This document shows positions 20,066 through 64,000 of a stretch of 64,000 bases of DNA, one piece after another. The DNA is from a virus. Taxonomy: Duplodnaviria; Caudoviricetes. Position numbers and translations under genes: made by a program. Positions within the stretch are counted from its first letter, which is position 1; every line of letters begins with the position of its first letter. The stretch lies in the IMG/VR virus record IMGVR_UViG_2901146262_000001, positions 32,001-96,000 of that record, one strand, 5' to 3'. The notes under the pieces are model-generated. The model had not been told where the DNA came from and searched no databases. It saw only the letters and a program-made list of their open reading frames with translations.

Positions 20066-20083
20066 AGAAGGGAAGTAATAGCA

Positions 20084-23000: not shown

Positions 23001-26000
23001 ATTGTATAAAGAGGTGTTAGTCAATGGGAAATGGTATGAGTTAAATTGCGAGGGTAGAATAATATGATTAAACGGTTTTTAATTGGTCTGTCACTATCTG
23101 TAATTATGATAGCAGGAATCGCAACGGATAGCACAGTACGAACAAGTAATATAAGCGACACTATGAAGCAATTACAAAGCAAGTCATGCAGTAATTATAT
23201 TGTCAATAATGAACAGATTAAATGTTAATTAAATACAGGAGGTTTTGAAAATGAAATTTTATACAGTTATAGCTCATTTTGATTTATCAATGCATACTGA
23301 ATGGGAAGTTAAAAGCTTTACTAGGTTAGAGAATGCGAGCAAGTTTGGCAAGGAAATGAAACAGAAATTTTTAACAATGATCAATGGGAGCAAATTAGAT
23401 CAAATGGAAAGCCATGAGGACGATAGAGGGGAGCCACAATTCTATAACTTTTATGGTGTATGCGAATTAGGCGAAAACTTTGCAACGATTGAAATTAGCG
23501 AACAGGAATTTGCTGATTAATTTAAAACTATAATTTTATTAGAAAAAAAAGGGGTCGGAGTGTTATGGAAATAGAAAATGTGCTGAAAGTTGTTGACGAT
23601 ACTATTGAGCAAATGAATAAAAATGCAATGGATTGCTTACAAGAAAGAGATAGAAAGAATGCTAAAAAATATATGCAATATGCAGATGGGATAAGAATGG
23701 TTAAAGATAATATCGAATTTAATTTTAGCAATTAATTAAATAAAAGTCACAATTTATTAAAAAATTAAATTAAAAGGAGAATGTAAAATGGAAAAAGTAA
23801 AAGTATCTATTTTAGGAGAAATTGAAAATGATGAAAAATTATATAGTGTGGCAATATTCCCTGTAGGAACAGAGATAGCTTCATACACTGAATTTGGTTT
23901 CCCTAGTCGTGAAGACGCTGAATTTCATGTTAGCGAAATGATGGATATTGAAATTATTGAAACGGAAATTACAGAAGAATTTTAAGATAAAAACAACAAT
24001 TTAAAAGGAGAATGATTATAAATGGAATACAATAGACAATCAACAATTGACTGGTTAGAAAATAATCAAATTAATGGAGCATTTGAAGGATTTCCAGAAA
24101 ACAACTTAAATTTTAATGAGTTAAGCAATGAAGTATTAGAGTTTTACTTTTATGAATCAGTGTTACCAGAACGGTTAGAACAAGAAGAACAAGAAGGATA
24201 AAGCAAAGGAGAATGATCCACAATGAAAAAGGATAACAAAAAAACAATGTCAGAACTATTATCAGAGTATAAGCATGGAAGTGATCAATATGAAACACGT
24301 TGCAACAAATGCTTATCGTACTTTGAAAGTGATGACGAATTAGAACTATTTTATGAAGACGCAAACGACTTAGAAACAGGATTTAAAGGTTGTCCAGAAT
24401 GCGAGACAGATAACTATTTAATGGACTTGAATTAAAAAAACTACATTTCAACTTAAAAATTAGGAGGAATAAAAATGAATACAATTCTTATAGATTTTAG
24501 CAACTTAGAAAACGAGGTAAAGCAAAAGGAAGTTGAATTATTACATGGTGAAAATTTATCTATGTTCATTAAGGATAAGTCTAATAACATATATGAAGCA
24601 GAAAAATATTTTGTAGGAAGTTATTTAGATGGGTTGCAATCAAACAAAGCAAAGGTAAGCTTTCATAAAATTTTGAGTAAGAATATAGAAGCAGTGGAAA
24701 ACCTTAGAATGAAAAAACTAATCGGATAAAATCAATATTATATTAGGAGGAATTGGAATGATTATGGCACAATCGCAATTAACAAATTTGGTAGACAGCT
24801 TAAAGTATGGACATGGAAATATAATTAGTAAAAATGAAAACTATGCAATAACAAAACCTTTAAATACATGGGATACCAACTACAGACTTTACGACAAAAA
24901 GGAAGGATTAACCTATCTTATTGATTGTGAGGACGTACAGGAAAACGAGGAACACTTAAATGAATATGGAGGTATCTTATTTCAAAGTCTTATAAACCTA
25001 GAAATTGAAGAAATTAAAAGCATATCATGGAAAACTGAAAAAGATAATTTTTATTAAACGACAAATAGGAGGAATGTAAAATGATAGCAATTAAATGTAC
25101 ATATTCAAATGGTGATACATCTACAACAGACATAAACGGCACACTAGAAAGCGCAAAGGACTACTTTTTAAATCAGTGGTTTAACTTTGGGGACACGGAA
25201 GAAAAGCCACACGATGATATGCAGCAATGTATAAAAGTTGAATTAATATAAAATTATTATTGGGAGGTTACGACATGAATATTAATTATAATGGTCTATC
25301 AGATAATGAGCAGGAAGTAATTGCAGCCACAATCAAGAATGGTTTTATGCATGGAATGATTGAAAATTTACATTGGAAAATAGGCTTTGAAACGCATGAC
25401 TGGGATAGTCAAGACGATAATTTACAGCACATTGCACACTTAATTAAAGAACATGATTGCACAAGCGGTGTTTATCCATCATGGAAATTAAAGTTTGAAA
25501 GAGTATAAACAATATAATAATGGAGGTTGTCAAAATGAAAGCAAATGCTTATGTAAAAATTGAGGAATCACCATCAAGTGGATATATTTCCATCAATGAG
25601 ATTATATTAGAAAATTATATTGATGAATCTTATAGGGAAAATATAGAAAGCGCAAAAGAATTTGATTTTAGAAATAAAGTAGAAACTTTGGAAGGTCATA
25701 AACTAAAGTATTTCTTCATGACAGTTGAATTTGACGGACGTAAAAAAAGTATTGCAGAAAATGACATTAAGCAATCATTAGAAAAGCAAGGGTTAGTCAC
25801 AAAGGTTGGCAGTAGCATGTTTGGCGGTTATTATCTACCAACAGAATATTTGCAAACAACTTTAAAAGAACAACTTAACAAAAGAAAAGAATTAATTAGC
25901 CAGGGGAAATATGAATTAATTGCATAAATTCATTGTTTTATTCAGAGGACAACAATAAATTATATGGAGGTTGTTAAAATGAATTGGGTAAAAAATAGCA

Positions 26001-29000
26001 ATTTTAAAGATTCTATAATAGAAAGAAGAAGCAAACAAAAATATTACGATATTAAAGTGATATACATGGACAGTACAACATATACAGGTATTTGGGCAAA
26101 CAATCCAGAAGAAGCAAAAAGCAAGGCTTATTATAAGTTTTTAGATGAAGATATAAGGAAAATAGAAATTCAATAAAACCGTTCTTATATTGAAAAATAA
26201 TTGGAGGTAATGAAAATGAGTTATGAGTATATTGTGTCTTTTAACACTGATTTCGGAGAAGTTAGGGCAGTTATCGAGAATGATGAACCTATAGAAGATG
26301 ATAACACGTTGTACATGATTGCTTTAAATAAGATAAAAGAAAGTAGCGTTATGCAGATTACAGGCGAGTTAGACGAGTCGGACATTATGGAAATATAACA
26401 AGTTAAAACCATTACTTTATTAAAAAATTGGAGGAATTAAAATGATTGAATTAAATGAAAGAGTTGAGATTACACAGGGATATAGAACTGGTGATTTAGC
26501 AATGGTTATCTATGTTGACAATGACAATAATTTATGCAAAGTGGAATTTGATGATTATGAGTTTTATGGTTACGATATAAGCGATATTAGAAGTGTTTAC
26601 GCTTAATTCAATAAAACAAATATTTTAAGGGGTGGTTTGAATGAATGAAAAAGCAATGAGTTGGATTATTGAATTATTAGAGAGCGGTGAAGTTGAAAAA
26701 GCAAAAACTGTATTAAAAGATACTAAACACAGTATAGAAACAAAAAGAAGCAATGCAAAAAGTGGAAGAATATACATTTAAGTTGAAATTAATCAATTAT
26801 GGGGGTATGGCACTATGAATTTATTAACCAATGATCACATTAACTTATTAAAAAGTAATTTTGTATTAAGGAGTAAGTTTAATGTAAACGAATTTAGCTT
26901 TGACTGCCTAGAGGGTGAATGGCTAGTTACTAAAAATAACAACCATATTGACGTATTTACTTTTAGACTTATGGAAAATGAAGAGTTTGAACAGACAATA
27001 AATGATATATTCTATAATACTGAAAAGGTAACATTTCAATAAAATCAATCATTTAGGGGTGGTATAAGATGGATCAACTAATAAAGGGTAGCAATAGTTA
27101 TAATTTTCTTAAATACATGCTTGATATAGCAAATGATTTAAAAAAGGAAGGGTATATAATAACAAGTGATATGACTATTAACGATGTAAGGGAGATTTAT
27201 TTCAGTCAAGAGAGGGCAGAACAATTTAAAAATAATCTTTAAGGGGTGATACAATATGTTTAAATTTATGAACACCAAAGAAAGATGCTTAGATTGTGGG
27301 GAAAAATTAAAAAATGAAACTCATATAATAAAAAATAAAGATGGACAGCATTTTTGTTCTAATTGGTGTAAAGACAATTGGAAAATGGATATTGAATAAA
27401 ATTAATCATTTAAAGAGGTGCAATGATATGGAATGCAAAGTTTGCGGACACAAGCATAATATAATAAGCTATGATCATTATGAGGTATCCCATGCAAATA
27501 CAGAAGAATTTATTCACATTCAAGGACATTTTACAATTGATTGGGGCAATGGATATAACAATTCACAAAGAGAAGTTTCTTTATATGCTTGTCCAGAATG
27601 TAATACTGTACAGATGGAAGTTTAAAACAATATTATAATGATGTGTAAACGATATGAAACAATTTACAAACATTCCTTGTGACTTATATATCCATAAGGA
27701 CGAATTGCCAAAGATGGAACAAGGAGAACAAGGAACAGGCTACAAAGAAGTGACCAACAATGAACAGTATATACTTTATAGTAAACATGCTTTCCTGCAA
27801 ATAACAGAAAATGAAATAATAGATAAAAACAGTTATAAAGTATTATTCATAATGGAATAAAATCAGTCTTTAAATGGAGGTAATTACAATGGATAAATTG
27901 AATAGCTTTATTGAAAACAGATTAAAAGATGCGGAATCATACACAGAAAAAGCGGACTGTTTAGAGATAATAGAAATTACGTTGCAAAGTGTAAATAAGT
28001 TGAATGACAGTATTAAGCAACAGCTAGGCAAGCACTGGGAGCATATCAATAATGCAGAACATTTTAGATTACATGAATAGTGGCCGTGATTAATTATAAT
28101 CAAAAAAATTTAACCATAATTAGGTGACTATATAATACATTAGTATAAAATAGTAGGTTTTTTATTTCCTACTTTAAGGGTTGAAGCACCATTCAATTTT
28201 TAAACTAGAAAATAAAATAAATCAATGTATAAAAAGGGGTTGGAGAAATGGGAAACATCATTCTAGTGCCCATATAAGCAAGGCATGCAGGCTTTAATGT
28301 GATATTGATACTAGCATACAATAGTAGTTATAAAACCGTCAAAGTCGCTTATATCAAACAGTACAAATACAGTCTAAAATTAGCAAAAAATAAATTTAAA
28401 ATAAGCAACTTTGAAATGATTACTATAGAATTGAACAAATTCATATAACAGCACTACTCAAATATCGCTGCCATTTTCAACAAGCGCGGCGGGCGCGGGC
28501 GGCGGCAGAAAATAAAAATATAATATAAAAAGGGGAAATTTAAAATGGAAAATGTATATTACTTTTATAACGGAACGGACAAACCTTGCGAGGTAGAATT
28601 AGACGAAATAATAATACAGGATAGTCTCATGGGGGATATGTTGGAGAGTTTCTGGGAAGATCACTCAGACTATGAGACAGACAAGGATAGTAGATACAAT
28701 GACGCTATGGGCATTACTTATGGAGTTTTGAGGAATCCAACGTTACAAGATTTTCAAGACATCAATGGCTATCACGGATTATCTCAAGAGGATTATTTAG
28801 AAGACTTTTTAATATATAGTTTTGCATAAATGAAATCCATATAACAGAATCTGTATATTATCGCTGTCATTTTTGTAATAAAAATATTTAATTTAAATTG
28901 AATAGAGGTGTTCATTATGAGGAAAAGTCCACCATTAGGAATCAGAAAAAGAGCAGGAGCCAATTATAAACATGGCGGTTGTTTAATGTATGTGGTAGCA

Positions 29001-29469
29001 GGAATTAGTGTAGTTATTATTGGAATTGCAACTATGATTTAATGGAATAGTTACTTTATAGGAGGGTAAACATTATGGAGGAATATAAATGTGAGTCTTG
29101 TGGGGAATTTGTCAGAGAGGATTTTGGAGTTACCGCACTTAACGGTGAGTGGGTTTGCGATAATGATAAATGCAGAACATTAGACAATAATAATGACTCT
29201 ACGAATAATCTAGAAACAGTGTGGAACCAGTTAGATAATGCCGGAAGAGCACAATGCAGCAACAGACAGTAGGGCAAATCATGAAGGAGATTCGCAACGG
29301 TAAAGTATTTAGGAATGGATTAATGAAAATCAAGCTATATGACAAGGATAAAGACACATTCCAAGTAGACAGTTACTTTAATGGTATGGATCTCAGGGAG
29401 GTGCTGTCCGTTGTAACAATAAGAAGAATTATAAAGGACAATATTAAACAATATTATATGGAGGGGTGA
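20084..29469 (+). other. Array of about 35 small co-oriented hypothetical genes (early/host-takeover-like region)
   Basis: 40-135 aa ORFs each with a strong RBS; several sigmaA promoters; includes ORFs under 60 aa such as 25081-25251. Confidence 0.8.
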
Positions 29470-29869
29470 AAATGAATATAATAATAGATAACACTATATG
29501 TACAGTGCAGTATAATAAAGTATATTGTAGCTATTCCGATTATATTAAGGTTCATAACAGATCTAAGGAGTTATTTAAAATGTGGTGTAATAAAAATGGC
29601 ATTAATCCAATCTGATAAAACAATCCTTTTAATTCATATAACAGCAAGGGTGAAATATCGCTGGAACTTATGCAATATTAAAAATAGGGAGGTAGCATTA
29701 TGAAGAATGTGAGGAGGTTTTTTAGATCTAAAACATTATGGGTAGCTGTTATTATTTTAATTATAGTAATATTTTCTTATGGTGAGGGTCGGTAATTCGA
29801 AGAGTAGATTATTTTTTTGGATATAATTAGGTGACATTATAATAAAAAGAGAAAAAGGGGATATTAAAA

Positions 29870-30172
29870 ATGAATAACTTATTAGCTAAAAAGGAACTAA
29901 CAGCCGAGCAATTGTCAATGGTGCAATCTGAAGCAGGAAGAAAAGAGAAGTCAAAAGGTGTAGCGTATGCGCTTTGGTTTTTCTTTGGTGGGATTGGCGG
30001 TCATAGATATTATGCAGGAAATATCGGCTATGCAATCGGAATGACATTGACAGTCGGTGGTCTGGGTTTATGGACATTAATTGATGTGTTTCTAATCGGC
30101 AAAGCTATCGAAAAGAAGAACGAGGAAATCGAATTCGAAGCAATCCAGCAAGTAAAATCATTGGCTAAGTAA
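29870..30172 (+). CDS. TM2-domain membrane protein
   Basis: KSKGVAYALWFFFGGIGGHRYY...GLWTLIDVFLI. Confidence 0.88.
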   Translation: MNNLLAKKELTAEQLSMVQSEAGRKEKSKGVAYALWFFFGGIGGHRYYAGNIGYAIGMTLTVGGLGLWTLIDVFLIGKAIEKKNEEIEFEAIQQVKSLAK

Positions 30173-30442
30173 TATAAGAGTTTAAAGTGGCTGATACGTT
30201 GTATCGGTCACTTATACATAAATAAACAAGGAGGTTGTCTAATGCGGTTGGTACACATAATAAACCATTACTTATTTGACACAGACACAATTAAATGGTC
30301 AGATGCGTTATTCTATTATGGAATAATAATAATAATGATTATCGTTTTAATTTGTACATTTACAGTTGGATAATTAAATTAAAATTATCCTTGACTAATC
30401 ACTCAATCGGGTATATACTTAATTGAGTTAATACTAACGAGG

Positions 30443-30646
30443 ATGATCGAAATGTTGAAGTTAAGACTAAAGAGTTATTTAGAAAAAAATGATATTACAC
30501 CTTACCAATTGGCCAAAATGACAAAAATTAGAATGGCTACAATTTATGGATATGTAACAGAAGAAAGAAGAAGTATCAATTTAGACAATCTGGAAAAAAT
30601 CATGAAAGCATTAGAGATTGAGGATATTAATATTCTGATTAAATAA
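30443..30646 (+). CDS. XRE/Cro-type HTH regulator
   Basis: ITPYQLAKMTKIRMATIYGY...LDNLEKIMKAL. Confidence 0.85.
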   Translation: MIEMLKLRLKSYLEKNDITPYQLAKMTKIRMATIYGYVTEERRSINLDNLEKIMKALEIEDINILIK

Positions 30647-30659
30647 AGAGGGTGAAAAC

Positions 30660-32480
30660 ATGTTGGTTAAAGATCATGATAAAAGTAAGGCAATAATAGA
30701 AACTGATTATAATTACGAATTATATAGAGAGATTAAACAAGTGCCAGAATCAAATTATAATATGGAACTAGATGCATGGGTATTAGATAAGAAGTATATT
30801 AATGCATTATTAAACAATCTAAAAAACATGAATTTATCTGTCAAGAATACCGTTGACCACACAAGACAAATCGGCTATTGCAAAGAAGTATTAAGTGAGA
30901 CAGTAAAAACGATTAAGCTGTCCGTGGTAAAGGAAAATAAAAAGACTATTGTCGTTAATTTTGACTTTGATTATGGGGTGCTTAACACAATTAAAATGAT
31001 TGAGGGTAGCAACAGACGATTCAATGGCAAGGATAAGTCGTGGGCAATCAGTAAAGACGAATTACAATGGCTGCACACTAAGCTAGATGAATTGAAATAC
31101 GTTGACACAAGCGACTTAAATCAATTTATTTCATGTAACAGCCAACCCGAAATATCGCTGGGAGATTTCCCAAAAATGGATCGAACACCTTTTGACTTTC
31201 AAATTGATGTAGCAAATCAAATGTTGAAGGAGAAGAAAATTATTAATGGACTTGAAGCAGGCTTAGGGAAAACAACAATTACAGTAATGGTTACAGAAAA
31301 GATTCAGTCGAAGACGGTAGTCATCTGTCCGGCATCGGTAAAACGTAACTGGGAGAAGGAAATCCGTATTGTTAATCCAGATGCAGATGTGGCTATTTTA
31401 AACGGCAAGGATGAATACAAGACAGCTCAATATCTGATTTTGAATTATGATATTTTGGATCGTTTCTATATGGATATTAAGAATGATAATTTTGAGACTC
31501 TTATCTTTGATGAAGCACACAAGCTAAGAGGTATTACAGGTAAAGGAACGCCATCATCGAAAAGAGCAAAATTTGGAATGGCATTGACTGAAAATATGGA
31601 GTATGTATTTCCGTTAACAGCAACACCATTTATCAATCAGACTAAAGATATTTTTAACCTATTAAGTATTATTGATAACTCTATGGCTAATAATTGGTAT
31701 GCTTTTGCAAACACTTATTGTGGAGCAGAGAATAACGGCTTTGGAACAAGTTATAACGGGTCTAGTAACCAGTCCAACCTATTTGAAAGGCTTTATCCTC
31801 ATGGTATGATTAGACTGCGTACAGAGGATCATATCGACTTGCCAGAACGTATCAGAAATTTTATCCCATTAGACATTAACTTAAAGCAGTATGAAGCTAA
31901 AATCCAGAAGTATATGGATGAAAGAGATAGTTACGAGGACAATGGACAGCACCTAGTGATGTTCGGAGCAGCGAGAAGACTATTGGCCAAAGAGAAGGCA
32001 AAGCACGCTGTGACTATGGTAAAAGACTTGCTAGAGCAGAATAAATCAGTCGTAGTGTTAAGTAACTATACAGATGTGGTAGAAAGTATCGCAAACAAGT
32101 TTAAAGAAGACGCTGTTATTATCGATGGTAGCAAAACGGATAAGCAAAGACAGGATTCGGTGGACTTGTTTCAAGATGGAATTAAAAAGGTATTGGTAGG
32201 TAATATTGATGCTGCAGGTGAAGGTATTACATTAACCAAGTCGCAACACATGATTGTTGTTGACATGCACTGGAGTCCAGTTTTCATGAAGGAACAAATG
32301 GAAAAACGTATTCACAGAATTAGTCAAACCGAACCTGCTAACATTCATTATTTATATGCAGTGGGTGCGAAAATTGACGAAAGAATGGTCGAAATGGCAG
32401 AGAAGAAAATGAACGATGCAAGTATGATCCTAGATGGCGCAAAGGAGTCCTTTGTAGACGAATTGATTAAAAGTTTGTAA
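30660..32480 (+). CDS. SNF2-family helicase/translocase (HARP-like N-terminus)
   Basis: GLGKT, ICPAS, DEAH, TATP, GEGITLT, RIHRISQ motifs. Confidence 0.9.
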   Translation: MLVKDHDKSKAIIETDYNYELYREIKQVPESNYNMELDAWVLDKKYINALLNNLKNMNLSVKNTVDHTRQIGYCKEVLSETVKTIKLSVVKENKKTIVVNFDFDYGVLNTIKMIEGSNRRFNGKDKSWAISKDELQWLHTKLDELKYVDTSDLNQFISCNSQPEISLGDFPKMDRTPFDFQIDVANQMLKEKKIINGLEAGLGKTTITVMVTEKIQSKTVVICPASVKRNWEKEIRIVNPDADVAILNGKDEYKTAQYLILNYDILDRFYMDIKNDNFETLIFDEAHKLRGITGKGTPSSKRAKFGMALTENMEYVFPLTATPFINQTKDIFNLLSIIDNSMANNWYAFANTYCGAENNGFGTSYNGSSNQSNLFERLYPHGMIRLRTEDHIDLPERIRNFIPLDINLKQYEAKIQKYMDERDSYEDNGQHLVMFGAARRLLAKEKAKHAVTMVKDLLEQNKSVVVLSNYTDVVESIANKFKEDAVIIDGSKTDKQRQDSVDLFQDGIKKVLVGNIDAAGEGITLTKSQHMIVVDMHWSPVFMKEQMEKRIHRISQTEPANIHYLYAVGAKIDERMVEMAEKKMNDASMILDGAKESFVDELIKSL

Positions 32481-32521
32481 AATGGTGATAATACGTATAA
32501 CAGGAAGGTGGAAATATCGCT

Positions 32522-33562: not shown

Positions 33563-33716
33563 TACCCACTTATGCCAGAATGTGTCGATTATTGTCTTGA
33601 CAGTGTTGTTAGGTAGCATTATAATAAAGTTATCTTATCAACTGGTACTTTTATACCATTCTTATGATCGGAAAAGAGTTCGCTTGGCTACAGCAATATT
33701 CTTATAACCTTAAAAG

Positions 33717-33751
33717 GAACACTTGTTCTATTTGTGAGAATGGTGTATAAT
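33717..33751 (+). promoter_or_regulatory. LexA (Cheo) box overlapping a promoter -35
   Basis: GAAC-ACTT-GTTC at 33717-33728; TTGTTC-N17-TATAAT. Confidence 0.65.
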
Positions 33752-33782
33752 ATTACCAAACATTAGAAGGGGAGAGATCAAC

Positions 33783-34223: not shown

Positions 34224-34379
34224 CTTTCTAATAAAGAACTCATAAATAACTTTATAATAAACTTACCTAAAACCGCCCCTTTTCTTTAATTGAGTATCTT
34301 TTTATTGAAATTATATTGACTTTAAGGTTATAAAGTAATATAATGTGTATATACTATAATACTAATCAAAGAAAAGAGG

Positions 34380-35378: not shown

Positions 35379-35379
35379 G

Positions 35380-35426
35380 AAGATTGTTGACCGCCGACAT
35401 ATATTGGTTGTCAGCGATCTTTTTTA
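35380..35426 (+). terminator. Intrinsic terminator after the repressor gene
   Basis: AAGATTGTTGAC/GTCAGCGATCTT stem plus T-run. Confidence 0.7.
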
Positions 35427-36790: not shown

Positions 36791-36817
36791 ATTGAATCTT
36801 TTAAAGGAGAATCTATA

Positions 36818-50590: not shown

Positions 50591-50653
50591 ACTTTGACCT
50601 CAGCTATAGATGTATACTATAATTATACTGCTATAAAGGAAGAGGTGGAGACA

Positions 50654-52583: not shown

Positions 52584-55500
52584 ATGCTGGATTTTAAAAT
52601 TGTTAGCGATTTTGAAGGAACTTTAAAAATGTTAGGTAAGAGTATTGATAATGAAGATGATGAGGCTTTGAGTTTGGCAATTATGTTAGAAGGCGAGTTT
52701 GGATATATAATACGTGATCAAATCGATACAACGAATGACGATGATAGATTTTTTATTAGTGCCACGCTGAATACCTTTAACAATTTATTGAATGCAGTTA
52801 ATGACAGGAAAGTTGCAGATGTGATTGAACGTATCAGAGATGGTATAGTTGACATTATAAAGGGAGAAGAATTAATGTAATTGAGCAATATTTAAATTCT
52901 TTGATTTCATTGTTGACATTTTTATTGGGTAGTATTATAATATAAATAGACAAAAAATAAAAATTAAAGGGAGAGATATTAATGAAATTCGGATTAAGAG
53001 AAGTTGTTGACTTGAAAGTATTCAATGAAAGTGATGAGCTTGTTACTGTACTTGACACAAGCAGGGAGAGTTTCATTCAGTATATTGGAGAAGATGAAAA
53101 GGGTGTAGGATATGTCGGTGTTAAAGATGCACTGATCGACTTAAACTTTATCAAATTCATCTCAGACGAGAGTAGCGAACTTACAGATTATGAAAAAGCC
53201 ATTAATAGCAATATGAATACGATTGAGCTAGGTGGTTCTGGCAACAGGAAGTGCAAATTGGTTGGTAACAGCTATGCAAGATCCAGAGATAGCGGAGGAG
53301 ATTGCAAATATTTAATTGAAGCTCCTAATGCAGAGGTTATCAATCGACTGTCAATTGAAAATAATACATATGATCCATCTGATTTCGATATTCTTTTTAA
53401 AGTTAAACCTTATAATGATAAAGGTTCACTGTTTAAAATTCATTTATAAATAATGCTTGACTTTATTATTGGGTAACATTATAATAGATACATAGTCAAA
53501 ATAAAGAAAAGGAGATGTTGATTAGTGATTATTGAATGCAGAAACAATGATGAGATAGGGGCAAGGAAATGGAAAATTGCTTAGAGCAGCTATTAGAGGA
53601 AATAAGTGTTAGAAAATCTTCTCACATGGAGTGGTGCGACGAATCATATGGAAATAGTAATGAACAGAGACTAATAAGAATTAAAATAAAGGAATTAGAA
53701 GACATTAGAGATATTGTTATTGATTATTGTCACAAGGAGAGAGAAAAATGACCTATTCTTTAAAGAATAACACAATAGTAAGAACGGATGACGGAGACGT
53801 TATGATTGTTCCTATTGAAGTATGTGGAAATGACCAACAAAAAGAGTTTTTTGCTTTCGGGGCAATGTATATGAGTAACGAAGGTGATTATCCGTTTGAA
53901 ATTCAATTTATTGATGAAGATGATAAGGAATTGATAAAACGCCTCAACAATGAAGTTGGAAGGGTTTTAGAAATAATCGAACCAGTTAGCAACAACTATG
54001 GGTTTTAAATACCACTTTTTCTTTTGCAGGTTGGCGTTATAAAATATTAAAAGGAGGAATAAAAATGAGCAAAATAATAACAGTAACAGCAAATCAAAAC
54101 TATGATTTTGATGGCGATGAGATTTATAAAATGGTTAAAGGTCAGGAGTTTAAACTAGAGAGATTATCAGATCGGGAATGGGAGTTTAGACTAACAGATA
54201 AGAATGGCATAACAACATATGTGGGGGATGACTTTTTAGGACAGTTTATGGACTTTAAAATGGATGAAATGCCTGAGTCAGTTGCAGTATATCTTTATAA
54301 TGAAGAGCATAAAGAAGATCATTTAAGAGATGGTACTTTGAGGGTGCTTAAGAGTCCATTCAAAGAAACACTTGAGTTACATAAAGTATTGCAAGAATTA
54401 GAGCAAGGAGAAGGGATTTCTGCTGATTCGATAGATTTAATTTTAAACAATCATAGTGACTTGTTACCCTACTTGGATGACGAGGTCAGACTACAAAAGA
54501 AGCTTGAAACATTGGTTTTTAAGTCTTGAAGATAAGAAAAGAGATGCAGAGTGGAGAGTATAGGCTTGAATGGAATTCTAGATAAAATGCGATATAGAAG
54601 AGGTGATAAAAAATGAAAAAAGCAACATTAATAACAATAACATCATTATTAGCAATCGCAGTACTGTTCCTTGTATCTGTTTATGGATTTGGATTTTTAC
54701 AGCGAGAAACAGCAGACTTTCGAGGGGAAACGGGTCAAATCGAGGATACAAAAGCTAACAGTGATTATCGCATAGCTTCATATGACAGCTTTTACGATTC
54801 GTGTGCCAGTGTTCAATCCATAGAGAGCAAGATTGTTAATATGCAAGATGAGTTAGAGGAAACTGATGAAGTGCAGCGTGAAACAGTACTTAAAACGTCA
54901 ATAACAGCTGCAAAGAATAAAAGGGCGGAACTTATTTCATCATATAATGCAGACGCACGTAAGGAAGCAACGCAAGGACAATTTAGAGCATCAGACTTAC
55001 CTTATGAATTAAATGAAAACGAGGAGGAAACAATTTGCGAAGCTTACTAAATAAAGGCAGTCTAGCCATTTTAATGTTAGTTTTATCGGCAGTTGTATTA
55101 TCTGCATGTTTGGAAGAAACATCTCAAGACAAAGAAACGGGAATACAACAGAATACTTATACCAAGCTATCAGAAAAGGAACCAGCTAAGGAGATGACTA
55201 ACCCGAAAACGAGGGAAACTATCAACTTTTTTACAGACACTTGGAATAAGAAAGATCAATTAGCCTATGTCTATCTGCAAAACTCTGATGGAGATATGAT
55301 TGGTTACTATGTGCTAGATGGGCCTCCTGTATCAATGTGTACGTCATTAACTCCGAATTTTAGGGTAGAAAGTGGTTCAAACGGAAAGGTAGTCACTCCT
55401 GCGCCGGGAACAGATGGCGTATATCGTGGCGAAGAGGATTGCAGCAGGTATTATGCAAAAGATGCTACTAGTGGTGCTTATGTAGAGTTTACTGTAGGTA

Positions 55501-56635
55501 TGGGGATCAATATGTTGCTTTATACTGAGCCATTAACAAATCATCCTAATGTACAAAGCTTATCACCAGAAGGAGAATGATTTACAGTAAAATGTAAGTT
55601 TGATTTGAACTATAATCTCAAATAAAAAAAGGAGATGGAATGAATGGAACTGAAAAGATATACTCACCGTCACGAGATGGTCATCAGGGAGCAAGTTGGT
55701 CTATATGTAGAAAAGGTTGCGGATGGAATTTATTTGATAAAGAAAGACAGATTAGGATCTAAGAGTGGTCAGTTCATTAACTCTGATACATTATTCAGTA
55801 GAATGGGTCATTATAAGAAGATAGCAATAGACGATGAGTCAGGAATTACAGCAATCTTTGATAGCTGGGAGTAAACTTTATTGAAAAAAGTATTTTTTTA
55901 ATCAATATAGGGTAGCAATATAGTATAATGTTTGTTACACTAAAGGAGTTGGTTGGTTGGCCAAGAGAGATGAAGATAAAGTATTGTACGATTTATTGGC
56001 TTACTTTGATAAGAATTATGCAGATGCAAGCATTGAACAAAAGAACATGTATGTCAGAGGAGTTTCTGATGCACTGTCTTATGTGTACCACGGCAGAATG
56101 AAGCCACGCTAAACAATAAAAAGGGGGAATTGAGTTGGACATAAATAAAGGTGACATAATCATTGTTAATATGGATCGTTTCGGTGGTGAAGGATTTAAA
56201 GAAATGGAAGTTTTTAATCCGACTGGAGATACTGACTATATTGAATATGTAGGAGAGCATTTTCTCGCTAAGTCATCATCAGGTGAAACCCATGTGATCA
56301 AAGAAGGCGATTATAAGCTTAAGGAAGATGATATTATTGATATTGCTGATAGAGTTAGAGTTCCAAAGACAAATGGCACTCAAAAGGAATGTTATATCGT
56401 AGTTGAAGTTGATAGTACTAATCGGGGTATATGTATATTTGATGATTTTGGCCATAAGATTTGGTATCAGAAGCATACCGTCACAAAAGTTGAAAATGAT
56501 CCAAACAATGAACAGTTACTTGATATGGTAGCATCTCTGTCCTCTGAGTTGATTAAGGTAAAGAATATAGTGGTTGATTTGGTTAGTAAGCAGCAAGACG
56601 TTAACGACAGAATCATGTCTGATTTATTAAATTAA
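52584..56635 (+). other. Hypothetical genes, including a membrane protein plus lipoprotein pair (54613-55050, 55035-55580)
   Basis: N-terminal TM helix; lipobox LSAC; overlapping reading frames. Confidence 0.7.
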
Positions 56636-56737
56636 CGGGACATCATTAAGGGTGGTGGTTATTTTCTGAAGGTTATAGGGTGACATTATAGTATATAAAA
56701 CAAAAATTAAACTTACAAGAAAAAAGGGAGAGATTTA

Positions 56738-57751
56738 TTGATGACAGAATTACAACCAACTTACGGAAACTTTAAACTACGAGGTATTGTACGACAAATT
56801 GGATTGCCATTTGCATTTAACAAAGGAACAACAGGCGGAGGACTAGAGTATAGACGATTAAACTTTATGATTCAAACAAGCAAGAATAACTTTGTTCCAG
56901 TTGAGCTATTTGGTATGAAATTTGACGAGATTACAATCACACCTACTGACAAAAAAGATAAGCAACGTAAGAAAATCACATATAGCGATGATGTATACAA
57001 GGATATTGAAGATGGCTGGGAAGTATTTATGGGAACTAATGTAGGAATCGAACAAGATGAAAAAGGTGGTAACATTAAAAAAGTATTAGCTCCATTCGAT
57101 GCGATCGAAGAAATTCATAAAGGATTGGAAGATGGAGATTCTGTATTTGTTAATGGAGGAAAACGATTCAATGAATACAAGGGAGATACGCAGCAGAGTT
57201 TTGAAATTCGTTCAATTTACCATACATCTGAACCCATTGACTTTGACGCAGAAGGGTTTGAAGAACAGTCTACTTTTGACCAAACATTGGTTGTGACTGG
57301 AACGGAATTAGATAAGAAAACGAATCGACTGATTGTTAATGCAAATATTATCTATGATAAAAAAGGGTTATTTGTTCCATTTGAATACTTTATTGATATT
57401 ACTCGATATAAAAAGTTCGCTTTAAACTTACGTAAATTCAAATTTGGCACACAAATTAAAGTTTCTGGACTAGTACATAGTACAACAGATATGGAGACTA
57501 TCACTGAAGAGACGGTTGTTACGGACGAATGGGGAGAGGACTTACATCAGTCTAGCGGTAATGACATTATCCGAGACACAAATAAATCACTTGAAATTAC
57601 CAAAGGATATCCTGAGACTATCGAAGAGAAAAAATACTCTGAAGATGACTTTAAAGCAGAAGAAGTGGATGAGGCATTTCAAGACAAAGAATTAGACGCT
57701 GGCGAGTGGGGAGATTCAGACGATTCGTCTGACGATGATCCATTCAAGTAG
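56738..57751 (+). CDS. Putative single-stranded DNA-binding protein (YorF-like)
   Basis: Tandem OB-like beta regions, acidic tail ending DDDPFK; adjacent to an AAA recombinase. Confidence 0.65.
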   Translation: MMTELQPTYGNFKLRGIVRQIGLPFAFNKGTTGGGLEYRRLNFMIQTSKNNFVPVELFGMKFDEITITPTDKKDKQRKKITYSDDVYKDIEDGWEVFMGTNVGIEQDEKGGNIKKVLAPFDAIEEIHKGLEDGDSVFVNGGKRFNEYKGDTQQSFEIRSIYHTSEPIDFDAEGFEEQSTFDQTLVVTGTELDKKTNRLIVNANIIYDKKGLFVPFEYFIDITRYKKFALNLRKFKFGTQIKVSGLVHSTTDMETITEETVVTDEWGEDLHQSSGNDIIRDTNKSLEITKGYPETIEEKKYSEDDFKAEEVDEAFQDKELDAGEWGDSDDSSDDDPFK

Positions 57752-57804
57752 GAAATAGTCAGACAACAAATCAAATAAATACATAAAAGGGAGAATGATG
57801 ATTA

Positions 57805-58749
57805 ATGGCATTTGTTAAACCAGATAAGAAAAAAGAAGGAACTAAGTTTTTATTTTACGGATACGCAGGAAGTGGGAAGACTCCAACTGGATTGTCTTTC
57901 CCTAACATCGCACTAGTTGACTCGGATTCAGGTACTAACTTCTATGATTTAGATAACGTAGTAGTTAACTCTAGCACATTATCTTTCAAAGAGCTTAATG
58001 ATGACTTAGATGAGTTAGAGATGGATGACGAGTTGTTTGAATCAATTGAAACATTTACCGTAGATTCTTTAACAAGATTCCACAACAACATGATTCACGC
58101 TATGAATAAGATCGCTGAGAAACGTGCGGTTAAGAATAGTCGAGATGCAGAGGGTGAAGGACTTTCATTTAAAGAGTATGGAAAAATGAAAACTTATTAC
58201 GGAGAATTCTTTGCTCGTATGCTCAACTTTGCAAAACAAGGGAAACATTTAGTCTTTATTGCTGAACAAAAGGATCAAAATGAGAATTCTGGTGGTGAAA
58301 TTAAGAAGATCGGTGTTATGCCGGATGGTCAAAAAAAGATAGAACATGATTTTGATGTTGTAGTCCGTACATTTAATGATGAGAATGGAAAACCTAAAGG
58401 TCTTGTTGAAAAAGATCGTACCGGAACATATAAAATTGGCGAAACAGTAGATAAACCTAATTACCAACTATGGAAACCTGCGATGGACAAAGCGTTGAAA
58501 GGTAAGCAGCGTAAAAAAGAAGAGATTAAATCCCTTAAGGATGTTGTCAAAGATGAAATCGAAGTGTTGGACGACGGGGAGTCACTAAAAGAAGAATTAC
58601 GCAAGGCGGCAGACGCAGTTATTAAATCTGGTAAAACAGATGAATTAAAGGCTAATTTAGAGGGTGCTGTAGGCACGATTAAATATAAAACGTTGACCGA
58701 ACTAGAAGACATTAAAAAAGCTCTGGAAGCAGTCAAGTCTATTAAGTAG
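57805..58749 (+). CDS. AAA_24/Sak4-like ATPase (YorG-like)
   Basis: YGYAGSGKT, VDSLT, DFDVV, KDRTG. Confidence 0.82.
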   Translation: MAFVKPDKKKEGTKFLFYGYAGSGKTPTGLSFPNIALVDSDSGTNFYDLDNVVVNSSTLSFKELNDDLDELEMDDELFESIETFTVDSLTRFHNNMIHAMNKIAEKRAVKNSRDAEGEGLSFKEYGKMKTYYGEFFARMLNFAKQGKHLVFIAEQKDQNENSGGEIKKIGVMPDGQKKIEHDFDVVVRTFNDENGKPKGLVEKDRTGTYKIGETVDKPNYQLWKPAMDKALKGKQRKKEEIKSLKDVVKDEIEVLDDGESLKEELRKAADAVIKSGKTDELKANLEGAVGTIKYKTLTELEDIKKALEAVKSIK

Positions 58750-58759
58750 AGGTGCGAAA

Positions 58760-59590
58760 ATGGGAAGTAACAACAAAAATAATAAATTAAAAGACGCATT
58801 TTATTATACAATTGGTACTTTCCTCATCACCTCATTTATTGTTTTTATTGGCTATGGGGGTGCAGTTATCACAACTGGCTCCCAGAAACCTACATATAAA
58901 AGTAGTCCTAGTCAATTCACTAATGATAATATCCGAAAGCGTATGAAGGTGCATGAGGAGAATAGCTTAGAAGGTAGACTAGGTAGGTACAAAAACTTAG
59001 TTTCACAGGCTGACAGCAAAATGTATGAGGACAATTTAAAAGAATTAGTAACAAAGGAAAAGAAGAGATTGGCCAAGGTTAGAGAAAAGAAGCGTGAAGA
59101 TGCAGAGGCTAAGGCTAAGAAAGAAGAAGAGAAAAGATTAGCTAAAGAGAAAAAGTTAGCTGCAGAACAAGAAGATAAAAGAGAGCAACAACTACAATTA
59201 TTAGCTGAAAAGAAAGAGAAGAGTAAGAAAGAATCTAGGTCTAAGCAGAAACCTAAAGAAAAAATCAAGAAAAGAAAACCTGTTGAAACCAACACTATGA
59301 CAATGGAAGCTACTGCATATGTAGCATTTTGTGACACACAGTGCACAGGAACAACTAAGGAAGGTACAGATGTAAGTGGTACTATTTATCATCCAAGTGG
59401 CAATAAGATTATTGCGGTTGATCCCAATGTAATTCCGTTGGGTACAATGGTCGAAATTAATGGAGAAAAGTACATTGCGGACGATACTGGTGGGGACATT
59501 CAACAAAATAGGATTGATATTCTAGTTAATTCAGAATCAGAAGCTAGGAAATTTGGCAGACAGAATGTTGAAGTTAGGATTTTACACTAA
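58760..59590 (+). CDS. Membrane-anchored 3D-domain cell-wall enzyme
   Basis: N-terminal TM, coiled coil, EATAY...IAVDPNVIPLG...ADDTGG...IDI. Confidence 0.9.
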   Translation: MGSNNKNNKLKDAFYYTIGTFLITSFIVFIGYGGAVITTGSQKPTYKSSPSQFTNDNIRKRMKVHEENSLEGRLGRYKNLVSQADSKMYEDNLKELVTKEKKRLAKVREKKREDAEAKAKKEEEKRLAKEKKLAAEQEDKREQQLQLLAEKKEKSKKESRSKQKPKEKIKKRKPVETNTMTMEATAYVAFCDTQCTGTTKEGTDVSGTIYHPSGNKIIAVDPNVIPLGTMVEINGEKYIADDTGGDIQQNRIDILVNSESEARKFGRQNVEVRILH

Positions 59591-59605
59591 AAGGAGGAAG
59601 ATAAA

Positions 59606-60133
59606 TTGGGAATTATTTATAAAGGTATGCAATTAGATGACATTTCGATGACTCACAAGGATCAAGTTTCAGCAATCGATGCTGTCACTGAAGCTATGAA
59701 TAGTAGCTACAGTTTGAATGGCCTAAATGAAGAGGCTAGTAAGCAACCGTATAGTTTAGGAGAATATGCTTCATCAATTACGTCAAAAGCTAAATATCCT
59801 CAGAATAAAAGTGATGGAGTAAAATTTGACAATATCCAAACTGATAAGATTAGCTTTGCAAAGACAAATAAAGATGCACATCAGGCGTTATTAGACGAAA
59901 TTCATGATACTTACATCAGAAAGAATAGAGACTATGGTAGTAGTTTTTCAGAACAGTATAAAGAGTATGGACTGCTGTCGCTCATCATTAGGTTAGATGA
60001 CAAGTTTCGTAGATTAAAACAATTAAACGAAAATGAAGCTTTAGTAAAAGAGAGCGTAGAGGACACGCTTCTCGATGCAGCAAACTATGCAATTATGGGA
60101 GTTATGGAGTTACGTAAACAGAAGGAAAATTAA
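59606..60133 (+). CDS. DUF1599/nucleotide-modification-associated domain protein
   Basis: YIRKNRDYGSSF...RLDDKFRRL...EDTLLDAANYAIM. Confidence 0.85.
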   Translation: MGIIYKGMQLDDISMTHKDQVSAIDAVTEAMNSSYSLNGLNEEASKQPYSLGEYASSITSKAKYPQNKSDGVKFDNIQTDKISFAKTNKDAHQALLDEIHDTYIRKNRDYGSSFSEQYKEYGLLSLIIRLDDKFRRLKQLNENEALVKESVEDTLLDAANYAIMGVMELRKQKEN

Positions 60134-60629
60134 TAACATAGGGGGAATACATAGCGTGGATCATAGCTTAAATATGAAAAAGAAAGCCCTAGTACTTGAA
60201 GATGAGGAATTAGCTACAGATTTTTCAGGAAATATTGGAACAATTGTAAGCTATGACAAAGAAGATGATGAAGGCTACGTTTTTTATAAATTGACATTTA
60301 CCAAAAAAGGTCTATACGACGAATGGTTCCATGAAAGTGAAGTCCAGTTGATCAATGACTAGGTGTAGAAACGTAACTGATAACAAAATATATCAGAATG
60401 TAGAATCATTAATGGACAAAATGGGAGATAAAGTGAAGTCAGATAAGCATTTGCTAGTATTATATTACAAATTTGTCGATAAGATTGATATTGATAAGGA
60501 TAATATGAGCACAAAACAGTTCTTATCTGATGCTACATCTCCCATTGACATCATTAATGCAAAGTATATGTACGAAATTAAGGATTATTAGGTAGTATTA
60601 TATTATAACAACTTAGAAGGTGAACATTT

Positions 60630-60980
60630 TTGAAGTATAAAGTTGGTGATGTCGTAATGATTAAAGATATAAATTTGAAAGGATCTATAACAGATGTATA
60701 TGAGAGAAGGTCAATTAGTATTTTAGGTGACACCAAGACGGTTAAATATAGGGTGCAATGCAAAGGCCAGCCATTAATGTTGTTTAGAGAAGACCAATTA
60801 TATAAGGAGAGTGAAGAAGTGAGGGAAATAGATAAAGATGCTGACGTTCCTTTGAAGCTTGAATTAGAGTTGTTGGATACATTGATTGAAGGTAGTTTGG
60901 TCAGAAAGAATAAGAAAGAATTTGAAGAGTATATGGAAATGAAAAGAGAAAAACAAGAACGATATGACAGTATGAGTTAA
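60630..60980 (+). CDS. IDEAL-domain-like protein
   Basis: N-terminal KYKVGD SH3-like region, C-terminal LIEGSLVRKNKKEF. Confidence 0.5.
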   Translation: MKYKVGDVVMIKDINLKGSITDVYERRSISILGDTKTVKYRVQCKGQPLMLFREDQLYKESEEVREIDKDADVPLKLELELLDTLIEGSLVRKNKKEFEEYMEMKREKQERYDSMS

Positions 60981-61183
60981 AGGAGTGACTATATGAAGTG
61001 GTTGGATGCGATTCGTGAGTTTGAGATCAGAGTAACCGGAGGATTTGCGTATTACTTTTTAATATGCGTGACACTTGTAACAGTTGGAGCATTAGGGGAA
61101 ATTATTGATTTGGTAATTGATTTATTCAAATAAGATGACGATTTTAATTAAAATACTAATGATTTAGACTAGGAGGAATTAGA

Positions 61184-63722
61184 ATGAAATTTAATATTGA
61201 GGAAACGAAAAACCTATTAAACCATGACAGTCAAAGCATTATCTTTAATGCTGCAGGTAGGGAGATTATTAAGCTCAGTCCTAATGGGGATATATTCGTA
61301 AATGGCAAACTAGTGGAAAACGATAAAGAAGTGGTGGAAGGCATGAGGGAACTGATAACTAATTCATAGTTAGTATAATCGAGTCTCAATCTAATTTTTG
61401 AGGAGTGATGGAAATGAAGGGCGATACTTTTAAAGATAAATATTGGGATGAAAAATTACAAATATATTGGGCTGGATATAATGGATGTGAGTACATAGCA
61501 TATAAAGGATCACATCAAATATTTGAATATCCAACATGGGAGTATCCAAGTCCACCATCTAGGATAATTCAACACAATGAAAGGATCGAGAGTGAAGATG
61601 ATTTTGAGAGTGCATTAGATAGTAGAGAGTGGTATACAGCACATTATACAAAATCAATTGATGAGTCTTTTAACTTAGATTTTACAGGCGACTCTAAATA
61701 AAACACAGATTTTACTTGAAGGAAAGATGGTGAGTAAAATATTTAATATAAAATTGCCTATTACCTACAATAGCTTCAATCATGAATTTGATATGGAGGT
61801 AGGAGAAGTCGAAGGTATGTTGTTTATAACAAAAATTAAAACCAGAAAGCAACGCAACTACAGGACACTTAAACAATTCTATAGAGAAGTAAATAACATT
61901 AAAGTAAACAAGGTTGACGAGATGCTTGAATCTTTTAGTAGGTCTGAGAAAGACATTTATAAGCAGCTTGAAGATGAGGATAACTTAATTGAAAAACTTG
62001 GTATTGATAAAACAAAAGTTGCTGAATTTTTCAAGGAGGAATTAATTAAAGAAATCAAAGAGAAGGTGTTTAGATAGCCAGATACAATTACGGTTTTAAT
62101 GGGAAAGGATGTGTTAAGGTGTCTGACTCTAATCAATTTGATGATAGAAATAAAGTATTTTGGCTAGGTGTAAACGGAATGGAGTATATTTCATGGGAAA
62201 ATTCGCGGCAAATTATTGAATATGACCCATATTATCATCCATTACCTTCAAGTGTTATTCATTATCAAAAAAGGATTAATTCAGAAAGCGATATGTATGA
62301 AGCTCTAGAAAATGGCGCTTGGTATCAAATTGAAGGACTCAAACTGATAAATCAGTGATTGTTACTGATGGTTTTAAATAGAAAGGAGTTAGAGAAATGA
62401 AAAGCACAAAAGAAGAACGCATTGAAGTGGTAAATAAGCTAATCAAATTCATATCAGAACGTGGTCGAAAATTCTTTTACTCAAGCAGCACAGTGAATAT
62501 GGATAATGTTGATAGCATTGCATTCATGAAATTAATAAATGGTCGTATTTATTTCGTTGATGATTACACACGAAGAGAGATTGCTGTAATAAATAATTAT
62601 CGAGATTGGAACGGATTTAGTCATGGTGGAACACTTAGGGCTTTGATAATAGACTTCGCAGAATTTATCCGAACTGGTAAATACACTAATGGAAACAATG
62701 GTTACGGTGGACTGTACTGCCCCCACTGGGGTCATAGCGACGAGATTCAGCGGGAAATAATTGATTATGCAAAAGAGATTGGGTATTTAAAATGACAAAA
62801 TGAAACCTTAGAAAGAAGGGTATTTGATGGATGAGCTAACTATTTCTGACATTGAAGCGGAAGTACAAGAACGAATGGAAACGCTGGAAAGACAGGATAG
62901 ACACGAACGTTTGAATGAATTGCAATTATTTATGGATTGGCTATTATGTGGCGACGATTACACGGGTTGATTATATTTCCGATCAAATTTTCGTTTTAAA
63001 GAATTTAAAGAGGGAGTAAAAACAGATGAAGACCATTACAGGGAAAGTGAACTTTGTGCTACAAGCATATTCTTTTCAAGATTTTCTTCAACATATGGAC
63101 AGATATAACTGTGAGGTGCTTGATATTAAACGATCATTCACCTCTTATATAGTGACTGTCAAAGGAACAAATGAAAACTTAAATCACGCGAGATGGTTTT
63201 TCAAGCACTGCGGATCTATTATTTAATCATAGCTAAATAGTTTATGTTATAAACTCCCCATTTTAATAAGAAAGGAGATTGAGAGTGATGCATAGGATTG
63301 TAAACATTCCTTTGAGCAACACTTACGGAAATGTAACTGCAATCAGAGATAGCGACAAGTTTTTCCTGCTACTAGATGACTACTCAAGTACTGATAGAGT
63401 TGAAATTAGTGCAGAGTTGTTTTGGATGATTGAAAGCGAGTTTAATTAAAAGAAGAATTATATCCTAAAAGGAGAGATGTTAATGGATGATGCTAAGACA
63501 ATTACCGTGGTGACTGGAGATGATTGGTCAGGAGTTTATATCGATGGACTGTTAGACAGAGAGGGTCACTCTATTGATTGCAGCGACATGCTTGAAATTA
63601 TCGATAGCTACAAGTGCTTTAAGAACGTTGCAGATTATGAGATCGACTTGGAGTATCTAGAAGATCTAGGGAGTTTACCTTATAAATTCGAAGATATTCC
63701 AAAGGAAAAGTTATTTAAATAA
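61184..63722 (+). other. Array of small hypothetical genes
   Basis: Co-oriented ORFs, most bounded by TAAAA-N6-TTTTA-like sites. Confidence 0.7.
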
Positions 63723-64000
63723 AACTCTGTTTTAATAAGGAAAGGATGAGTAAAAGTTGAATCAATATGAAGGACTAGAAAGTTTATTCAAACAGATGGA
63801 GTCAGAATTGCGTTATTTAAAGCCAGCCGAAAAGCAAAGTGTAAAGAAGTTTATGATATTCGCCTTTGAACGTGGAGAGAGTTCGACAATCAAAAAGTAT
63901 TTATAATTAAAATACATATTTTAATGGGAGGTTAAGCAGATGAAAAAAGTAGTAAATGGACTTCTATTTGACACAAGCCAATCGACTCATATCGCAAAAT

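Follow-up and report, generated by a model that had tools for sequence, protein, structure and literature searches.

The palindrome TAAAA-N6-TTTTA recurs at the boundaries of small genes in a stretch of viral DNA of 64,000 nucleotides (nt), positions 32,001 to 96,000 of the IMG/VR record IMGVR_UViG_2901146262_000001. This stretch is referred to below as the window, and positions are those of the window unless another sequence is named. The best-supported account of the motif, to which we give a probability of about 0.5 on the basis of sequence comparison, is that it marks a protein-bound boundary site where gene modules are exchanged between related phages. According to this account, a palindromic site of 28 base pairs (bp) would punctuate the boundaries of gene modules in SPbeta-like phages and in related large siphoviruses of Bacillota. 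The site would be bound as double-stranded DNA by a phage-encoded dimeric protein, and a YomM-type tyrosine recombinase seems to be the likeliest reader. Related phages would exchange modules in the site itself, not merely beside it, either by recombinase catalysis or by short homology at a conserved binding site. The parts of the account differ in strength. It appears rather probable that some phage protein reads the motif as a DNA site; that this protein is YomM has close to an even chance; that strand exchange is catalysed at the site is a tentative suggestion and somewhat doubtful.

Seventeen exact copies of the motif are present in the window, compared with a mean of 0.99 and a largest value of 5 in 100 dinucleotide shuffles, none of which reached 17. 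When the spacing k between the arms was varied from 0 to 14, k = 6 gave the 17 copies and any other k gave 0–2, while three alternative arrangements of the TAAAA and TTTTA arms showed no peak. The intergenic control was made on the early arm of the prophage to which the window belongs (147 segments, 16,202 nt) with 200 mononucleotide shuffles within segments. At k = 6 this DNA contains 19 exact copies versus a mean of 0.39 (largest 4), and 52 copies with at most one mismatch versus a mean of 6.97 (largest 15). The sharp peak at k = 6 over shuffled intergenic DNA, anticipated in an earlier note made from the letters of the window (the original prediction), is therefore real. The other spacings stay at background, save k = 7 and k = 8 with one mismatch, an excess that is partly made up of the same k = 6 sites, shifted. 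The bacterial genome of 4.36 Mb, on contig 1 of which the window lies, has 76 exact copies, 28 of them within the prophage of ~140 kb. All 17 exact copies of the window differ from one another in their 6-bp cores. The 14 exact and 23 one-mismatch copies that the original prediction had listed are all present, and three more exact ones (10124, 48493, and 58788) were found.

Genes were called by our own procedure from open reading frames plus ribosome-binding sites (RBS); the calls are crude and some starts are wrong. With no more than one mismatch allowed, the region 19000–64000 has 54 copies; 45 fall in the 24% of the sequence that is non-coding. A copy is found at 43 of the 111 gene junctions of this region, and 68 junctions have none. 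These numbers bear out the claim that the sites stand at small-gene boundaries. Most copies in the window lie between a stop codon and an RBS, 13–40 nt ahead of the start codon. As had also been claimed, the TAA of the left arm often is the stop codon of the upstream gene: this is the case for 16 copies, and separate inspection adds a 17th, at 48295. Copies occur at 0 of 8 junctions in the helicase/MrpR block (29700–36000), at 2 of 17 in the block 50400–61000, and at 1 of 19 in the late arm (1–16000). The copies are given below, without strand.

8512–8527: exact copy, late arm, intergenic
10124–10139: exact copy that falls within a called gene of the minus strand; may be chance
23523–23538: exact copy, core CTATAA, intergenic
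26612–26627: exact copy, core CAAATA, intergenic, 14 nt ahead of a start codon
29616–29631: exact copy, core CAATCC, immediately 3' of a stop codon
36065–36080: exact copy, core CAATTA, TAA of the left arm ends the upstream gene
37060–37075: exact copy, core TGGAAC, intergenic
38846–38861: exact copy, core TTCTTG, intergenic
40007–40022: exact copy, core TACGGA, intergenic
43284–43299: exact copy, core TTTGTC, intergenic
46157–46172: exact copy, core CACAAC, intergenic
47337–47352: exact copy, core GTGAGC, TAA of the left arm ends the upstream gene
48493–48508: exact copy; the gene calls are ambiguous there
50321–50336: exact copy, core TACTGG, within a repeated intergenic stretch of ~90 bp
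58788–58803: exact copy inside the called gene 58760–59590; may be chance
61699–61714: exact copy, core CACAGA, TAA of the left arm ends the upstream gene
63908–63923: exact copy, core TACATA, intergenic
22887–27873: first small-gene array, one-mismatch intergenic copies at 22887, 23741, 23988, 24727, 25925, 26174, 26404, 27040, 27227, 27397, and 27858
23246: one-mismatch copy overlapping a start codon; may be chance
36788–48910: second small-gene array, one-mismatch intergenic copies at 36788, 37644, 37827, 38073, 38260, 39427, 42461, 45765, 46460, 48295, and 48895
39427 (in the same array): one-mismatch copy abutting a promoter −35
41128: one-mismatch copy overlapping a start codon; may be chance
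55588–63735: one-mismatch intergenic copies at 55588, 55885, 61131, 62083, 62983, 63250, 63447, and 63720

The intergenic stretch of ~90 bp at 50250–50340 is repeated ~32 kb downstream, beyond the window. Both of its copies end in TAAAA-N6-TTTTA, with differing centres, and an RBS follows.

The motif is shared by other phages. In a blind scan of five elements, three of them distant prophages, every 5-nt arm was combined with its reverse complement at spacings of 0–12, and TAAAA at spacing 6 was the top palindrome in all five. The copy numbers at k = 6 and the means for the other spacings are as follows.

The prophage of the window: 28, mean of other spacings 1.5
SPbeta (NC_001884): 34, mean of other spacings 1.75
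Prophage G013: 45, mean of other spacings 1.92
Prophage G135: 35, mean of other spacings 1.25
Prophage G120: 14, mean of other spacings 1.0

For other phages, exact copies were counted over whole records, and either k = 7 or the reversed pattern served as the control. The motif turned out to be enriched in nine further large siphoviruses of Bacillota.

Geobacillus E3: 30 at k = 6, control 1 (k = 7)
Mammaliicoccus phi6255: 36 at k = 6, control 1 (k = 7)
Tsamsa: 23 at k = 6, control 3 (k = 7)
PJN02: 31 at k = 6, control 5 (k = 7)
Staphylococcus SPbeta-like 2: 17 at k = 6, control 4 (k = 7)
Lactococcus 949: 7 at k = 6, control 1 (k = 7)
Perkons: 17 at k = 6, control 2 (reversed)
vB_BcoS-136: 23 at k = 6, control 6 (reversed)
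Kirov: 25 at k = 6, control 1 (reversed)

No clear excess was seen in BtCS33 (2 vs. 0 at k = 7), Basilisk (2 vs. 4 at k = 7), Enterococcus 9183 (7 vs. 2 at k = 7, with 5 for the reversed pattern), SEP9 (10 vs. 1 at k = 7, but 9 for the reversed pattern), and KKP_3916 (2 vs. 1 for the reversed pattern), and Sundance shows no excess at all (0 vs. 4 for the reversed pattern). According to the recorded hosts, Basilisk (B. cereus) and BtCS33 (B. thuringiensis) are without the motif, whereas Tsamsa (B. anthracis) and Kirov (B. cereus) have it. Such a difference between phages of the same host group argues against a host factor.

The palindrome is longer than the ten defined letters. In all five scanned phages, the consensus of the left flank, T-Y-T-r-r-W before TAAAA, is also that of the right flank when the latter is read as its reverse complement. 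The full consensus is a 28-bp palindrome of the form 11-6-11, in which the arms read roughly T-Y-T-r-r-W-TAAAA and the 6-bp centre is free. The symmetric flanks strengthen the suggestion, made at the outset, that the motif has the geometry of a tyrosine-recombinase site. The core positions adjoining the arms are symmetric at the population level and do not pair within single sites. This suggests two independent half-sites on duplex DNA rather than a hairpin.

The placement of the sites relative to transcription signals varies. At SPbeta 76171 a terminator is followed by the motif, then by an SPBRE promoter, and then by aimR; at SPbeta 99498 the motif lies between a terminator and the next promoter. 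Other SPbeta copies are found between convergent genes (39886), between divergent genes (57148), and in a 5' leader (129297). In the window phage the site is upstream of the promoter wherever a promoter is present (39427 and two prophage copies beyond the window). The variable placement argues for a role at the DNA level and not for a fixed part of a transcript. TAAAA sites are absent from all nine of the best sigma-A-type promoters in the window; a copy abuts one of them, at 39443. The sites themselves show no promoter and no G+C-rich stem, and the count of terminator-like structures equals the shuffle expectation. The left arm was also considered as a sigma-A −10 element and rejected, since it has no −35 and no TG at the right distance. 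The usual position of the window copies, between a stop codon and an RBS shortly ahead of the start codon, would suit an RNA-level signal, i.e., a hairpin, a processing site, or a translation element. Such a signal appears very improbable: its stem would consist of five A-U pairs only, the arm-adjacent positions remain unpaired within single sites, and a shared transcript is not expected for those SPbeta copies that separate a terminator from a promoter or two convergent genes from each other.

Whether gene modules change at the sites was addressed in the SPbeta clade, because no close relative of the window phage was found. A megablast search of 16000–36000 against phage records returned no match, nor did a search of IMG/VR with the MrpR-like protein of the window. 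A match to that protein is present in 7 of 246 genomes of the same family, the window's own included, with a best identity of 34%. When DNA of 36000–52000 was compared with 60 relatives, a prfA/prmC stretch was the sole match. A blastn comparison of the prophage with three distant prophages gave blocks of 63–83% identity that fade inside genes and are uninformative on junctions. SPbeta and the window phage are themselves very distant, their terminases and DNA polymerases being ~24% identical.

SPbeta was compared with phi3T (all but 12 kb) and with ~30 kb of the early region of each of Goe13, SPbetaL2, and SPR. The 102 homology-block ends reduce to 72 unique breakpoints; the distance to a motif centre is at most 12 bp for 16 of these and at most 25 bp for 24. 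A breakpoint was found in 20 of 42 motif-bearing gaps versus 19 of 149 other gaps (odds ratio 6.2, p = 4e-6). When gaps of 14–120 bp alone are considered, the figures become 12 of 24 versus 9 of 66 (odds ratio 6.3, p = 7e-4), and a count confined to the early region gives 12 of 22 versus 7 of 42 (p = 0.002). The proposal of the original prediction that breakpoints of gene gain and loss fall at the sites is thus supported for the SPbeta clade only, with an odds ratio of ~6 relative to other intergenic gaps. Near a motif, 11 of 24 block starts are at motif position −2 to +1, and 7 of 20 block ends are at motif position 13–16. In the alignments, identity begins at the first T of the motif or stops at its last A, and the 6-bp centre is shared. 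Eighteen of the 19 junctions at a motif edge share the whole motif including the core; in one, the joint lies directly after the left arm. This one joint is in phi3T at SPbeta 87599; its centre matches a different site, 800 bp away, and two genes between the two sites have been deleted. SPbeta 86074 and 92753 show the pattern expected if exchange occurs in the site: one relative shares the motif and its centre along with the left flank alone, another relative along with the right flank alone.

Twenty-seven SPbeta proteins match the prophage of the window, and the best kept are YomM (63.5%), YonO (57%), and the HU-like YonN (55%), all three being nucleic-acid binders. The genes that bear on the discussion are listed here.

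Contig-1 428564–429577, minus strand: YomM-like tyrosine recombinase of 337 residues, ~5.4 kb left of the window, in the structural-gene cluster
16151–17209, plus strand: tyrosine recombinase that has the whole set R, K, HxxR, H, and Y; a weak counterpart of YopP (23% identity)
34380–35378, plus strand: MrpR (YopR)-like repressor with a tyrosine-recombinase fold (Pfam MrpR_N_CB, E value 3.5e-14)
13125–15647, minus strand: YonO-type single-chain RNA polymerase, 57% identical to SPbeta YonO; without link to the motif
57805–58749: Sak4-type AAA_24 protein

Both domains of the YomM-like protein can be aligned with solved XerC-like and XerA proteins, and the YomM family keeps the catalytic Arg, Lys, His, His, and Tyr. 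The second catalytic Arg is replaced by Lys in the SPbeta-like subgroup and is retained in Tsamsa, 949, and PJN02, which have the full set. A full-length YomM homologue (E value at most 1e-39) is present in 11 elements, all 11 of which are enriched in the motif. Where the homologue is weak or missing, clear enrichment is seen in none of six phages; these include Sundance and KKP_3916, which have MrpR-like genes. The yomM-type gene is located among structural genes wherever the role of the neighbours is known (Tsamsa, 949, PJN02, and SPbeta). Since it keeps this company and is also found in Lactococcus 949, which we take to be a virulent phage, YomM does not look like an ordinary integrase. The phage has two Xer-like recombinases; among named models, XerA, XerC, and XerD fit them best, but none reaches its cut-off. 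The original prediction had pointed to the recombinase at 16151 as the possible enzyme. This proposal was not supported: with 23% identity to YopP, the 16151 protein is the poorer match for a motif that is kept unchanged clade-wide, and YomM (64% identical) tracks the motif far better.

Two other candidates were tried and rejected. The sites were considered as promoters or terminators for YonO. The late operon of SPbeta has one start site (PMC5467207), and YonO rarely co-occurs with the motif, for which reasons this reading was abandoned. YonO was found in one of the ten phages searched, nine of which bear the motif; it was not found in the other nine, eight of them with the motif, by a first-pass filter that may miss remote homologues. 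The HU-like (YonN-like) protein of the phage was dismissed as the reader after it had been found in one of five motif-bearing phages. No relevant paper was among those listed in a literature search for yomM.

As an alternative, the original prediction had named operators of the SPBRE type, and the MrpR-like master repressor would be the protein that binds them. In its favour, the window encodes such a protein, as listed above, and the MrpR palindrome likewise is often situated just before an RBS, according to PMC10516654. The same paper describes about ten peaks for MrpR in chromatin affinity precipitation sequencing (ChAP-seq), at promoters bearing SPBRE, a 15-bp motif. As derived here from ten named upstream regions, SPBRE is ATACA-N7-TGTAT within a longer conserved promoter, in ~12 copies. 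SPbeta has SPBRE and its 34 TAAAA-N6-TTTTA sites as separate sets. The MrpR homologues of prophages G013, G135, and G120 are 25–34% identical to that of the window, yet the motif is unchanged, and Sundance and KKP_3916 have an MrpR-like gene without the motif (counts given above). The nine strongest promoters of the window contain no copy, the one at 39443 being merely abutted. In addition, the phage has promoter-embedded repeats of its own, namely a unit composed of a consensus −35, a conserved 17-bp spacer, and a consensus −10, in seven near-identical copies in the prophage.

41060–41106, plus strand: repeated promoter unit
53452–53498, plus strand: further copy of the unit
15846–15892, minus strand: further copy of the unit
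Downstream of the window: four more copies

One of these units stands before the YonO-side operon. The −10 is overlapped by a related palindrome, TTATA-N-TATAA, of which there are 12 copies. These elements are probably the phage's counterpart of SPBRE and the operator of its MrpR-like repressor, and the MrpR-like protein of the window probably reads a repeat other than the TAAAA motif. Taken with these observations, the idea that the sites are operators of this repressor is hardly credible.

Several observations weigh against the exchange of modules at a YomM-bound site. The four relatives used in the breakpoint test are kin, so that the events are not independent, and the test uses crude gene calls. 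Where a motif is conserved, BLAST blocks will by their nature extend through it before they end. Variable regions hold clusters of sites and of breakpoints alike, a confounding effect that the control for gap length lessens and does not remove. The nearest relatives of the window phage in the collections searched are too diverged for the junction test. Among sequencing runs, none of RNA is listed as holding this DNA, and the only full holder may be the source assembly. A soil metagenome covers 8% of the sampled words in contigs of ~200–370 nt, in which rare deletions or circles are invisible. Over 31000–50999 these contigs provide four informative divergence points, none of them inside a site; one is 8 bp before the one-mismatch copy at 48295, one is 32 bp before the exact copy at 50321, and the other two are unrelated to the sites. 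The enrichment in Lactococcus 949 and in the Staphylococcus SPbeta-like phage is only modest. As for YomM, the agreement in 11 of 11 elements overstates the support, because co-occurrence follows phage kinship, and the YomM-bearing phages may be one clade that shares further genes. Moreover, with Lys in place of the second Arg, SPbeta-like YomM may bind without cutting, as published for MrpR.

In a rival explanation, the motif is a regulatory or architectural binding site (e.g., for late shut-off or DNA compaction) and its 16–28 bp are used by accident in general or Sak4-type annealing recombination. Homology-driven exchange needs shared sequence at the joint, and 18 of the 19 motif-edge junctions do share the whole motif and core; the phage encodes the Sak4-type AAA_24 protein; the Lys of SPbeta-like YomM fits a binding-only protein; and the PeSL elements of T4-type phages, which consist of a strong promoter and a terminator hairpin and recombine by homology, provide a precedent (PMC2839356). 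On the other hand, sixteen identical bases are very short for homologous exchange, the YomM relatives of Tsamsa, 949, and PJN02 keep the full catalytic set, and no regulatory logic is apparent, as the sites occur before promoters, after terminators, and inside operons alike. On balance this explanation seems somewhat unlikely.

The original prediction itself favoured a dedicated cassette system, in which single genes would be captured, excised, and shuffled by a tyrosine recombinase of the phage that cleaves at the borders of the 6-bp centre. Such a system would agree with the 11-6-11 geometry, with the junctions at sites in the SPbeta clade and the two-gene loss between two sites in phi3T, and with the 16 copies that abut a stop codon. 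It would also give work to the two Xer-like recombinases, which integration does not need because a large serine recombinase is found at the right end of the prophage. We nevertheless consider it unlikely, since all 17 exact window copies have different cores and since there is no attC-like folded site, no integron integrase, and no single entry site adjoining the enzyme gene. Circles and empty sites were not seen, the one run with this DNA being stored as contigs. Against the NCBIfam model of integron integrases, the YomM-like protein scores 21.7 bits and the 16151 protein 24.3 bits versus a cut-off of 265, and no array begins next to either recombinase gene. The attC sites of integrons are long imperfect inverted repeats that fold as single strands. 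With neither an attC-type structure nor an integron integrase, the description of the arrays as integron-like fails as a statement of membership, and the system is not an integron in the strict sense.

A more specific version of exchange at the sites can be imagined, which we regard as speculative and distinctly unlikely. Most tyrosine recombinases would not join sites with different cores. With the different centres of the 17 exact copies, a typical enzyme of this family would therefore be blocked between the sites of one genome and allowed between genomes. YomM-type recombinases, made late and located among structural genes in temperate and virulent large siphoviruses alike, might thus work at dozens of sites with shared arms and private centres, which would make gene exchange addressable and order-keeping. 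The differing centres would bar recombination within a genome and keep it intact. The same site on sister genomes would recombine, giving multimers for headful packaging, and in mixed infections two phages would swap the modules that flank an 'address' common to both.

The window belongs to an SPbeta-like prophage, as follows from the YonO-type polymerase, the MrpR-like protein, the YopP-like recombinase, and the large serine recombinase. The last is located ~33 kb past the right end of the window (contig-1 532250–534955) in a frame of 901 residues, whose residues 1–512 are fused in frame to residues 550–899 of a pyrimidine-nucleoside phosphorylase. Reading into the 3' part of the phosphorylase gene, it marks the right end of the prophage. 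The host pdp gene therefore appears to be the insertion site, the equivalent of spsM for SPbeta. The prophage also carries, at 50594–52583 of the window, a prfA gene for release factor 1 (RF1; equivalog, 560 bits vs. a cut-off of 423) and an adjoining prmC, which encodes the release-factor methyltransferase (273 bits vs. 199). The host has its own copy of this stretch on contig 9, with 81% DNA identity. For a phage, a pair of RF1 and PrmC is unusual, and it may have a bearing on stop-codon use or counter-defence.

SPbeta has been a model phage for 50 years. In its relatives, just these arrays of small genes are home to many genes of defence and counter-defence. A conserved site at the joints of modules would explain how such arrays can be rebuilt freely while gene order is kept. 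The pairing of the motif with YomM would give a function to an orphan recombinase that is the best-conserved protein of the group and is encoded even by phages such as Lactococcus 949, presumably virulent. No description of the motif was found in a literature search by keywords and motif strings that included passages of PMC8270828 and 10.1101/2021.11.22.469490; the 1999 SPbeta genome paper or supplements may mention it.

Four known systems are useful for comparison. As with integron cassettes, sites follow many of the short, mostly promoterless genes of the arrays (43 of 111 junctions have one, 68 have none), and the recombinase that may be concerned is a tyrosine recombinase of the Xer branch. 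Unlike in integrons, there is no long imperfect attC, no attI, no integron integrase, and no single expression promoter; the sites are symmetric, 16–28 bp long, have five A-T pairs per arm, and would be read as duplex DNA. The PeSL elements are likewise short, conserved, and intergenic, and they occur in variable regions of small genes at the joints of insertions, deletions, and replacements, as described in PMC2839356. The present motif differs from them in having neither a promoter nor a stable hairpin, in being much shorter, and in co-occurring with a recombinase gene.

SPBRE resembles the motif in that it is a palindrome with 5-bp arms from the same phage family, often lies before an RBS, and has a reader with a tyrosine-recombinase fold. 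It differs in sequence and spacing (ATACA-N7-TGTAT), in its ~12 copies being embedded in promoters, and in not being conserved outside the SPbeta clade; the TAAAA motif has 28–45 copies in four of the five scanned elements (14 in the fifth) and is kept far beyond that clade. Finally, the core site of the Xer/dif system is a single site, whereas here there are dozens per genome, each with its own centre and placed at gene boundaries, with no known partner translocase or accessory sites and with cleavage that is putative. What the two have in common is the plan of the site, two inverted arms of ~11 bp about a centre of 6–8 bp; the present site has a length of 28 bp, symmetric arms of 11 bp, a sequence-free centre of 6 bp, and a strict spacing of 6.

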